Shown here in pieces: positions 1 through 1,616 of a stretch of DNA of 1,616 bases (its first letter is position 1; each line of letters starts with the position of its first letter). The stretch is from Escherichia coli (GTDB lineage Bacteria > Pseudomonadota > Gammaproteobacteria > Enterobacterales > Enterobacteriaceae), in assembly GCF_003334255.1 (NCBI RefSeq), contig NZ_QOWU01000153.1; one strand, written 5' to 3'. The notes beneath the pieces were generated by a model. That model had not been told where the DNA came from and did not search any database. It saw only the letters and a list, made by a program, of their open reading frames with translations. A program made the position numbers and the translations under genes.

Positions 1-351
1 AACCAGATGGACCCGGTGTACACGCCGGCGCGAAAAATCCACCTGTACCACTGCGACCATCGCGGCCTGCCGCTGGCGCTTGTCAGCACGGAAGGGGCAA
101 CAGAATGGTGCGCAGAATACGATGAATGGGGCAACCTGCTGAATGAAGAGAACCCGCATCAGCTGCAGCAGCTTATCCGCCAGCCGGGGCAGCAGTATGA
201 TGAGGAGTCCGGCCTGTATTACAACCGCCACCGCTATTATGACCCGCTGCAGGGGAGGTATATCACTCAGGATCCGATTGGGCTGAAGGGGGGATGGAAT
301 TTTTATCAGTATCCGCTGAATCCGGTTCAGTATATAGATTCAATGGGACTG
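1..351 (+). other. Conserved Rhs core C-terminal segment, ending in the PxxxxDPxGL-type demarcation/autoproteolysis motif ([10 protein letters not shown], nt 322-351)
   Basis: YD-repeat-like RYYDP (aa 76-80), DPIGL (aa 89-93) and PxxxxDxxGL (aa 106-115) are read directly from the translation. The segment is GC-rich (about 58% by hand count over nt 1-60), unlike everything downstream. Confidence 0.85.
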
Positions 352-810
352 GCATCAAAATATGGACACTTAAATAATGGCGGATATGGAGCGAGACCCA
401 ACAAACCGCCTACGCCCGATCCAAGTAAATTGCCGGACATAGCGAAACAATTAAGACTGCCATATCCTATTGACCAGGCCAGTAGTGCGCCTAATGTTTT
501 CAAAACATTCTTCAGAGCATTAAGCCCTTACGACTACACACTGTATTGCAGGAAGTGGGTAAAACCAAATCTGACTTGTACGCCACAGGATGATTCCCAG
601 TATCCAGGGATGGATACAAAGACAGCAAGTGATTACCTGCCACAGACAAATTGGCCAACAACTCAATTACCACCAGGATATACTTGTGCAGAACCCTATT
701 TATTCCCAGACATTAATAAACCCGATGGGCCAGCAACAGCAGGGATAGATGATTTGGGTGAAATTTTAGCTAAGATGAAACAGAGAACATCGAGAGGAAT
801 AAGAAAATGA
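1..810 (+). CDS. Rhs-family polymorphic toxin, 3' portion of the gene (5'-partial): conserved core terminus plus variable C-terminal toxin domain
   Basis: Frame 1 is open from nt 1 (aac cag precede the ATG at 7), so the listed ATG is an internal Met and the gene continues upstream. The translation ([12 protein letters not shown]...[47 protein letters not shown]) is the hallmark C-terminal end of the enterobacterial Rhs/YD-repeat core. Stop TGA at 808-810. Confidence 0.9.
352..810 (+). other. Variable Rhs C-terminal (CT) toxin domain, about 152 aa, activity not recognisable; Pro-rich linker followed by a roughly 110-aa C-terminal module
   Basis: It begins immediately after the DSMGL motif, where Rhs proteins carry their polymorphic toxin tips. 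Composition drops to about 45% GC (hand count over nt 421-480). A Pro-rich stretch ([30 protein letters not shown], aa 128-157) precedes a Cys-containing module (C181, C191, C227). I see no HNH, deaminase, ADP-ribosyltransferase or other familiar catalytic motif. Confidence 0.75.
792..799 (+). promoter_or_regulatory. Shine-Dalgarno / ribosome-binding site for the immunity ORF, embedded in the 3' end of the toxin ORF
   Basis: GAGAGGAA at 792-799, with the AGGA core ending 8 nt before the ATG at 807. Consistent with translational coupling. Confidence 0.5.
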
Positions 811-863: not shown

Positions 864-1376
864 GATTGCGAAATACAAGCTAAAGATCATGATTGTTTTA
901 CTATTTTCGCTAAGGGTACTATTTTTTCCGCGTTTCCTGTCTTAAATAATAAAGCCATGTGGAGATGGTATCAGAATGAGGACATCGGTGAGTATTATTG
1001 GCAAACAGAACTGGGTACATGTAAAAATAATAAATTCACACCAAGCGGGGCGAGACTCTTAATTCGCGTCGGGTCACTACGCCTTAATGAAAATCATGCC
1101 ATCAAAGGAACGTTGCAGGAGTTGATAAATACAGCAGAAAAAACGGCGTTTCTCGGCGATCGGTTTAGAAGTTATATAAGAGCGGGTATCTATCAAAAAA
1201 AGAGCAGTGATCCAGTTCAGTTGTTGGCAGTCCTTGATAATTCAATCATGGTAAAATATTTTAAAGATGAGAAACCAACTTATGCTCGAATGACAGCACA
1301 TCTCCCGAACAAAAATGAGTCTTACGAATGTTTAATAAAGATACAGCATGAACTAATTCGTAGTGAAGAGAAATAA
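807..1376 (+). CDS. Putative cognate Rhs immunity protein (RhsI-like), 189 aa, with N-terminal signal peptide or membrane anchor
   Basis: The ORF lies immediately downstream of the Rhs CT with a 4-bp ATGA overlap (start 807-809, toxin stop 808-810), the canonical toxin-immunity arrangement. A Shine-Dalgarno-like GAGAGGAA sits 8-15 nt upstream. The N-terminus [19 protein letters not shown] has a basic n-region, a hydrophobic core and a VIA motif. The region is very AT-rich (about 30% GC by hand count over nt 841-900). Confidence 0.75.
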
Positions 1377-1590
1377 AATCTCTTCCTGAGAAAACAAATT
1401 AATCATTGTGAAAAATTATATAACTCATGGAATAGGTGTTTATTTTGCGTTCCATTTGCAGGGAAAGATCACGTAACGCTACTTTTTTGTACTAAATAAT
1501 TCGAATTTTAAGTTCAACAATTGAGATACTACTTATTGTCTAAAGCTGTTTTTCATAGCTTATACATGATCAAATACTCCTTACATAAAT

Positions 1591-1597
1591 AAGGTGA
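1591..1597 (+). promoter_or_regulatory. Possible ribosome-binding site for a downstream ORF
   Basis: AAGGTGA lies 5 nt upstream of the ATG at 1602. Confidence 0.35.
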
Positions 1598-1601
1598 ACA
1601 A

Positions 1602-1616
1602 ATGGAACTTAAAAAA
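1602..1616 (+). CDS. Possible start of a downstream gene (3'-partial, only 5 codons visible: MELKK)
   Basis: ATG at 1602 preceded by an AAGGTGA RBS-like motif, after about 225 bp of AT-rich non-coding sequence. Too short to assess coding potential or identity. Confidence 0.3.

Follow-up and report, generated by a model that had tools for sequence, protein, structure and literature searches.

A new Rhs tip family at the Escherichia coli rhsC locus, encoded with the presumed immunity protein YbfC and proposed to act in the periplasm

Introduction

Rhs/RhsI modules of type VI secretion systems (T6SS), such as Dickeya dadantii RhsA/RhsB, Serratia Rhs1/Rhs2, Pseudomonas protegens RhsA and Photorhabdus Tre23, are the described systems closest to the locus analysed here. 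For most Rhs tips characterised so far, the site of action is the cytoplasm, and in Rhs and Tc proteins the motif at the junction of core and tip serves aspartyl autoproteolysis. We studied a 1,616-nucleotide (nt) stretch of Escherichia coli DNA (contig NZ_QOWU01000153.1; "the window" denotes this stretch at its full length), which megablast against 5426 complete E. coli genomes placed at the rhsC locus, and which holds the C-terminal tip of ybfO, the gene ybfC and the start of ybfQ. No similarity in sequence or fold was detectable between the ybfO tip and any characterised Rhs tip, the second junction motif reads DSMGL, and the presumed immunity protein YbfC has the features of a Sec-exported protein, whereas the tips and immunity proteins of the modules named above are cytoplasmic. 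The likeness to these modules lies in the layout, with a YD core, a DPxGL-type junction, a short tip of lower GC content, a coupled small immunity gene directly 3', relatives that lie beside genes for VgrG and PAAR-like proteins, and orphan modules behind the main gene (PMC3150448).

A second comparison can be made with T6SS effectors that act in the periplasm, whose immunity proteins, like YbfC as predicted, are soluble, periplasmic and equipped with a signal peptide. For the Tae/Tai amidases, Tge/Tgi muramidases, Tle/Tli lipases and Tlde1/Tldi1, the immunity protein is exported and the toxin need not cross the inner membrane; by the same reasoning, an envelope effect is to be expected of the ybfO tip. 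Unlike these effectors, the tip has no catalytic Cys-His pair, lysozyme-like Glu, GxSxG, HxKxxxxD or YkuD motif, its ~119 amino acids (aa) make it smaller than most of them, and it would reach its target as the end of an Rhs protein, not as free cargo. The Serratia effectors Ssp2 and Ssp4, which are reportedly DsbA-dependent, are alike in concept only: oxidative folding in the target periplasm would fit Cys66 and Cys112 of the tip, but we found no homology, and the need of the ybfO tip for a disulfide is deduced from residue conservation.

The arrangement of the locus recalls the rhs-main and rhs-orphan genes of Salmonella Typhimurium, where an N-terminally truncated Rhs fragment, bearing a tip and an immunity gene of its own, stands behind a full-length rhs and where some strains bear the orphan tip on the full-length gene. 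Recombination is said to re-activate such orphan tips in Salmonella. The two cases differ in the toxin domain, and the E. coli rhsC locus is known here from sequence. A systematic screen for polymorphic toxins described new periplasm-active toxins, PT4 and PT6 (bioRxiv 10.1101/2021.10.19.465003); motif searches of its supplement and of other papers gave no ybfO-family motifs.

The ybfO tip represents a new family that appears confined to Rhs proteins

Frame 1 of the window is uninterrupted from nt 1 to a TGA at nt 808-810, and a second open reading frame (ORF) of 189 aa, ybfC, begins at nt 807, the tip stop and the ybfC start overlapping in an ATGA at nt 807-810. ORF residues 1-115 match the RHS core (NCBIfam NF041261, 2.2e-68, profile positions 1147-1261 of 1261; TIGR03696, 3.1e-23, aa 38-115; Pfam PF03527, 7.7e-15). 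In the translation, DPIGL (nt 271-285) is followed after 17 residues by DSMGL (nt 337-351), and as the latter closes at nt 351, the tip starts at Ala116 (nt 352). These findings bear out the initial annotation, which had read positions 352 to 810 as an Rhs C-terminal tip of roughly 152 aa behind a demarcation motif and had described it as Pro-rich, with three Cys and a basic tail. The tip comprises 152 aa. Pro accounts for 21 of them (13.8%, against 7.8% for the core part), the three Cys are residues 66, 76 and 112 of the tip, and the sole His is residue 6, within the linker. The tip further has an isoelectric point (pI) of 9.1, a grand average of hydropathy (GRAVY) of -0.82 and a basic C-terminal tail. 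The core has a GC content of ~0.58, the tip of ~0.45 and ybfC of 0.31-0.43, and this drop is the classical composition break of Rhs elements.

The second junction copy, with Ser instead of the Pro of canonical DPxGL, is variable in the family. Close relatives have DPMGL (P0006), DPKGL (P0008), DSMGL (P0011 and P0015), DSLGL (P0010) or DALGL (P0012), and among the distant relatives read, P0085, P0088 and P0089 have DPxGL and P0090 has DSIGL.

The initial annotation had also been unable to assign the tip to a known toxin family, and the collections that we searched agree. Pfam gave zero matches for the tip and for each of the 35 sequences of a fused toxin-plus-immunity alignment (A3) scanned singly, up to an expect value (E) of E <= 10; NCBIfam gave zero for the tip, for YbfC and, at E <= 10, for five distant representatives each of the toxin and the immunity protein, and PADLOC and PHROGs gave zero for the tip or YbfC. 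Single and profile queries of PDB sequences returned chance matches only (E >= 0.18, for example MAP kinase, mS33 and nanobodies). A fold search of the PDB gave no match to a known toxin fold, and Foldseek with the toxin-only model against AFDB50 recovered family members only, the next match having an E of 1.7. Of the checks that had been proposed for the tip, profile hidden Markov model (HMM) searches of Pfam and NCBIfam and structure prediction with structural-neighbour search matched no characterised family, and the toxin models were weak.

To define the family, a 10-sequence profile was run in an exhaustive HMM search against 1.84 billion cluster representatives (E <= 0.001), which yielded only 28 proteins. 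Of the relatives read, each was the end of an Rhs protein or Rhs fragment with a DPxGL-type junction, bar one, a 2084-aa repeat protein (P0098, E 3e-4) that was judged a spurious match. When 5.8 billion clusters were searched with a word-indexed profile, the only additions were a Delftia protein and fragments, and no non-Rhs carriers (CdiA, MafB, LXG) were among the matches. Hosts are Escherichia, Shigella, Salmonella, Phytobacter, Citrobacter, Delftia and Paracidovorax, together with metagenomes. The tip family appears to be rare, narrow and exclusive to Rhs; it is a new toxin family inside a known kind of system, and no new kind of system.

Comparison of the window with a 70%-identical homolog (locus L012) gave a Ka/Ks of 0.164/0.495 (~0.33) for the conserved domain, which marks the tip as constrained protein-coding sequence. 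The tip, whose sequence is retained across genera, is a real coding domain rather than a chance ORF. Distant relatives, with 27-44% identity, can be aligned only from tip residue ~34 to the end. We therefore regard residues 1-33 as a variable Pro-rich linker and residues 34-152 as the domain proper (~119 aa), in keeping with the C-terminal module of about 110 aa that had been suggested before. Conserved across the family are Asp41, Ser58-Pro-Tyr-Asp-Tyr62, Tyr65, Cys66, Trp69, Cys76, Pro85-Gly86, Asp94, Pro97, Pro107, Gly109, Cys112, Phe118, Ala130, Asp134 and Arg151-Lys152. Cys66 and Cys112 are invariant, conserved His residues number zero in the family alignment, and a Salmonella lineage (P0011) has Tyr in place of Cys76. 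Because Cys76 is replaceable, the likelier structural disulfide is Cys66-Cys112.

Near the C-terminus stands a [DE]Dxx[DE] motif, seen as GIDDLGE in the window and as DDKLD, DDMLE or DDWLE in relatives, in which Asp134 is invariant. Its likeness to the diphosphate/Mg-binding DDxxD of prenyl enzymes is superficial, an idea and not evidence.

AlphaFold2 (AF2) modelled the tip alone, from a 10-sequence alignment, with a mean predicted local distance difference test score (pLDDT) of 53.7. A fusion in which a 30-aa Gly/Ser linker joins tip residues 30-152 to mature YbfC, modelled with the partly paired 35-sequence alignment A3, reached a mean pLDDT of 71.7, with a good YbfC part and a moderate toxin core. 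Within this core (tip residues 62-119, pLDDT 70-91), strands were predicted at 62-72, 87-91 and 111-119, and a C-terminal helix was predicted at low confidence for residues 130-148.

YbfC is a presumed periplasmic immunity protein

YbfC homologs have a distribution as narrow as that of the toxin and are without a Pfam domain. A homolog of 188-207 aa lies directly 3' of the distant toxin, overlapping or adjacent, in 5/5 loci (L003, L006, L007, L009 and L010), and a sixth locus (L012, toxin 70% identical) holds a frameshifted YbfC copy (6617-7132) with the break in mid-gene. According to the ORF list of the window, there is no other small cytoplasmic ORF between toxin and ybfC. This pairing suggests that ybfC is the presumed cognate immunity gene of the tip. 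At L006, two tandem YbfC paralogs (4735-5301 and 5404-5976) follow one orphan toxin as a small immunity array, and the full-length Rhs upstream bears another tip, behind which lies a 188-aa ORF (3132-3698) with hydrophobic stretches. The rhs gene at L012 and L013 is broken into many fragments.

That the downstream protein is exported had been proposed from the window's copy, and the family extends this: among close and distant homologs alike, each intact YbfC that was inspected starts with a signal peptide that has a basic N-terminus, a hydrophobic core and small -3/-1 residues. In the window's YbfC it spans aa 1-19 and is followed by DC, and the highest 19-residue Kyte-Doolittle average (KD19) of the N-terminus is 2.24. 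Mature YbfC has no predicted transmembrane segment (maximum KD19 1.03) and models as a beta-sandwich. Its Cys residues behave as disulfide pairs, in that Cys30 and Cys175 (precursor numbering) are invariant in a 12-sequence alignment, and Cys21 and Cys72 are jointly present or jointly absent in 12/12 sequences. As this is the pattern to be expected of two disulfides, one universal and one optional, YbfC is taken to fold in the periplasm. Lipidation of Cys21 is disfavoured by its covariation with Cys72; lipobox-like sequences (AIAAC, ALASC) precede Cys21 in several homologs.

The tip probably acts in the periplasm of target cells

The location of the immunity protein, the invariant toxin Cys residues and the presence of a short linker only, with no separate entry domain, lead us to consider action in the target periplasm highly probable. 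The initial annotation had likewise favoured the envelope or periplasm over nucleic acids as the site of action, and the exported immunity protein, the invariant Cys and the lack of a nuclease signature now support this. The alternative is that the tip is a cytoplasm-acting toxin, either an unrecognised nuclease or a metabolism toxin, and that YbfC is an unrelated secreted neighbour. It would place the tip among most other characterised Rhs tips, and one relative (P0015, a Phytobacter ursingii record) is publicly named 'putative deoxyribonuclease RhsC'. However, this name was apparently carried over via the shared core from a different Rhs protein and says nothing about the tip. The strict synteny of toxin and YbfC in overlapping or adjacent genes at all five distant loci, the invariant toxin Cys, the lack of a nuclease motif, profile match or conserved His, and the lack of another small cytoplasmic ORF in between make a cytoplasmic toxin very improbable. 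Nuclease, deaminase and ADP-ribosyltransferase (ART) activities are unsupported, since HNH/His-Me, Tox-REase, Ntox, HxE...CxxC and ART candidates found no profile match, and the tip has no conserved His or CxxC.

Within the periplasm, a membrane-active toxin would use the C-terminal amphipathic helix, with its acidic start and basic end, to depolarise or permeabilise the inner membrane from the outer leaflet, with YbfC sequestering the helix. The helix predicted at tip residues 130-148, its moderate amphipathicity (hydrophobic moment, muH, 0.38), the conserved terminal G-x-R-K with the basic tail and the periplasmic location of the immunity protein would all fit. However, the tip is without a hydrophobic segment (maximum KD19 0.14), hydrophobic hairpin or glycine zipper, and the acidic-to-basic charge gradient along the helix can be merely structural. 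Pore-former immunity proteins are normally integral in the inner membrane; mature YbfC, by contrast, is modelled as a beta-sandwich and lacks any predicted transmembrane segment. With the tip lacking a hydrophobic segment and YbfC a predicted membrane segment, pore formation is unlikely, and we judge membrane activity of the wider kind quite improbable as well. Pore formers and ionophores of the colicin, Tse4, Ssp6, Tme and Tse5-CT types were rejected on the same KD19, on a GRAVY of -0.8 and on the YbfC model.

Two further candidates were rejected. Peptidoglycan amidases and peptidases (Tae, NlpC/P60, CHAP and YkuD-type Tlde1) would require a His for the Cys-His pair or for the His...SxGC motif of YkuD, but no His is conserved in the domain, the sole one being in the linker, and Pfam gave no match for any family member. 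A Colicin M-like lipid II phosphatase was set aside as the tip is without DxYDx5HR, a conserved His, or a PDB sequence or fold match; the sole loosely diphosphate-binding-like feature is the speculative [DE]Dxx[DE] at tip residues 133-137.

This leaves two options for a periplasmic tip: a new kind of envelope enzyme, directed at the cell wall or lipid-linked precursors, or an inhibitor that blocks an envelope protein stoichiometrically. Structural residues make up most of the conserved set, which mildly favours a binder, and Asp61, Asp94, Asp134 and the [DE]Dxx[DE] motif leave an enzymatic or diphosphate-binding role possible as a matter of speculation. No single biochemical activity seems to us more than conceivable. 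It is conceivable, if somewhat doubtful, that both the fold of the tip and its mode of action are new to T6SS/Rhs toxins, the tip being a disulfide-locked periplasmic domain of ~119 aa with no catalytic His; the mode could be that of an enzyme on peptidoglycan or undecaprenyl-diphosphate-linked precursors, possibly using the Asp residues and the motif just named, or that of a stoichiometric inhibitor of an essential envelope machine. In that case its toxicity would have been overlooked because chromosomal ybfC protects most E. coli strains, K-12 derivatives such as J53 among them.

The tip occurs as an orphan fragment and as the end of a full-length Rhs protein

Megablast detected 80% or more of the window in 3516 of the 5426 complete E. 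coli genomes (65%), mostly at an identity of at least 99%. The matched regions are annotated as an Rhs protein, as 'ybfC: protein YbfC' and as ybfQ, which is the remnant of an ISAs1-family transposase. This identity as ybfO/ybfC, the K-12-type orphan or pseudogene status and the prevalence had been missed by the initial annotation. The K-12 derivative J53 carries, in this order, ybfA, a full-length rhsC with a different tip, ybfB, an orphan Rhs fragment with the tip, ybfC and ybfQ/ybfL/ybfD remnants. O26 strain RM10386 has the same gene order. In strains E2865 and 300709, the ybfA-ybgA site is instead occupied by a single full-length gene, whose 1399-aa product ('RHS element core protein') ends in the tip, and ybfC follows directly. 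The coordinates of the two arrangements are 3740-9810 for rhsC/ybfB/orphan at L001, versus 4611-8810 and 2611-6810 for the full-length gene at L002 and L015. As the ybfB-orphan junction was found in 2643 genomes out of ~3516 carriers, most carriers hold an orphan tip and a minority other arrangements, including the full-length fusion; by frequency, the orphan arrangement is the more likely source of the window. The two arrangements look like C-terminal displacement or re-fusion by recombination between core repeats, in either direction. Such a locus fits the C-terminal displacement model of rhs evolution as relayed in PMC3150448 (Jackson et al. 2009).

This prevalence of orphans raises the possibility that the tip is a non-functional relic in the source genome, a displaced fragment without start codon, promoter or delivery domain, and that ybfC alone, as stand-alone immunity, or neither gene, matters. 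In J53 and O26 the N-terminally truncated tip fragment is annotated as a pseudogene 'missing N-terminus', the K-12-type junction dominates among carriers as counted above, and decayed copies exist elsewhere, namely P0015 and P0016 (Phytobacter and a metagenome), whose toxins have frameshifted C-termini (...PCLFPDLDAPRRTSNGRDR), and L012 with its frameshifted immunity gene. However, thousands of genomes preserve the frame unbroken at an identity of at least 99%, the Ka/Ks of 0.33 speaks for constraint, in-frame full-length fusions stand at the same locus, and the reported re-activation of orphan tips in Salmonella provides a precedent. We consider a relic unlikely. This alternative concerns the expression state and not the identity of the domain, and it is compatible with a periplasm-acting tip.

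Proposed mechanism and the points that weigh against it

These analyses suggest a scheme in which the tip is a T6SS-linked, disulfide-dependent envelope toxin that acts in the periplasm and is neutralised there by YbfC, and we hold this scheme as a whole to be fairly probable. In full-length Rhs proteins, the tip sits directly behind the YD-repeat core and the DPIGL...DSMGL junction; it would be packed in the Rhs shell and freed by autoproteolysis at the junction. A T6SS would then fire the Rhs protein into neighbouring cells, and relatives do adjoin genes for VgrG (Gp5_C), DUF2169, PAAR-like and DUF6531 proteins. In the target periplasm, the ~119-aa domain would fold with at least one disulfide, Cys66-Cys112, and damage the envelope, the likeliest target being the cell wall or its lipid-linked precursors; alternatively, it may bind and block an essential envelope protein. 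YbfC, to judge from its sequence a Sec-exported, disulfide-bonded periplasmic beta-sandwich, would guard producers and bystanders, presumably by binding the toxin 1:1. In the K-12-type arrangement, the tip would have been displaced from the full-length gene by a newer rhsC tip and ybfB. Being without a delivery domain, the orphan toxin is probably silent cargo, to which recombination could re-fuse a core, and ybfC may still confer immunity.

Several points weigh against this scheme. Autocleavage at a DSMGL-type junction is an assumption. Pro, Gly, Cys and aromatic residues predominate among the conserved positions, which form no catalytic constellation that we recognise, and an enzymatic activity on the cell wall is a guess. 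Since the toxin models are weak, with only a 60-residue core at pLDDT 70-91, the missing fold match is weak evidence. The N-terminus of the full-length E. coli Rhs matches DUF6531 and only weakly PAAR (E 0.24). To our knowledge, E. coli K-12 has no T6SS; the stretches of the E. coli rhsC locus that were read contain no adjacent vgrG. Because most copies, in E. coli and elsewhere, are orphan fragments, many are probably never deployed. Our literature search found no papers on ybfO/ybfC function and no toxicity, secretion or binding experiments on the pair, which is long catalogued in K-12 yet unstudied.

A periplasm-acting Rhs tip of new fold would, if the scheme is true, add an antibacterial activity to those known and possibly a new envelope target. 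The pair is common, being present in E. coli K-12 and in about two-thirds of complete E. coli genomes, and a functional assignment would strike two genes off the list of K-12 genes of unknown function. It would also explain the polymorphism between orphan and full-length rhsC, which may shape competition among E. coli strains. Because chromosomal ybfC would mask it, toxicity of the tip would escape screens in ybfC-carrying hosts, that is K-12 derivatives such as J53. In a transcriptome study of non-O157 Shiga toxin-producing E. coli (STEC) associated with haemolytic uraemic syndrome (HUS), ybfC (log2 fold change 4.23), labelled 'putative secreted protein', and the rhsC family (8.49) were among the most over-expressed genes, with the caveat of its authors that read assignment among Rhs repeats is uncertain (PMC6033998).

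Other features of the window and the locus

The coordinates of all features are collected in Table 1. The spacer and the window gave no match to Rfam, and promoter- and terminator-like sites in the window are no more frequent than in shuffled sequence.

Table 1 Features of the 1,616-nt window, with residue numbers of the tip counted from its first residue and those of YbfC from the precursor.
Feature	Position (nt)	Strand	Basis and remarks
Rhs core, 3' end	1..351	+	Coding sequence enters from beyond the 5' end of the window, frame 1; NF041261, TIGR03696, PF03527; GC ~0.58
Demarcation motif DPIGL-x17-DSMGL	271..351	+	Translation; presumed aspartyl autoproteolysis, cut expected after Leu at nt 351
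Pro-rich variable linker, tip residues 1-33	352..450	+	Not conserved in distant relatives; pLDDT <50
Conserved toxin domain, tip residues 34-152 and stop	451..810	+	Family conservation, AF2 core, Ka/Ks 0.33
SPYDY	523-537	+	Conserved motif
Tip Cys66	547-549	+	Conserved residue
Tip Cys76	577-579	+	Conserved residue
Tip Asp94	631-633	+	Conserved residue
Tip Cys112	685-687	+	Conserved residue
[DE]Dxx[DE], tip residues 133-137	~748-762	+	Opens C-terminal helix
Terminal RK	802-807	+	Conserved
ybfC, presumed cognate immunity, 189 aa	807..1376	+	Signal peptide nt 807-863; mature beta-sandwich (model); Cys21, Cys30, Cys72, Cys175
YbfC Cys21	867-869	+	
YbfC Cys30	894-896	+	
YbfC Cys72	1020-1022	+	
YbfC Cys175	1329-1331	+	
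AT-rich spacer, ybfC to H-repeat/ISAs1 remnant	1377..1601	.	GC ~0.30
ybfQ, first codons, ISAs1-family (H-repeat) transposase pseudogene	1602..1616	+	J53 annotation: ybfQ at locus 10602 = window 1602

Downstream of the window, the K-12-type ISAs1/H-repeat remnants (L001, 10602-13007) consist of ybfQ, an unnamed pseudogene that would match ybfL, and ybfD, and a single ISAs1/H-repeat remnant is found in E2865.

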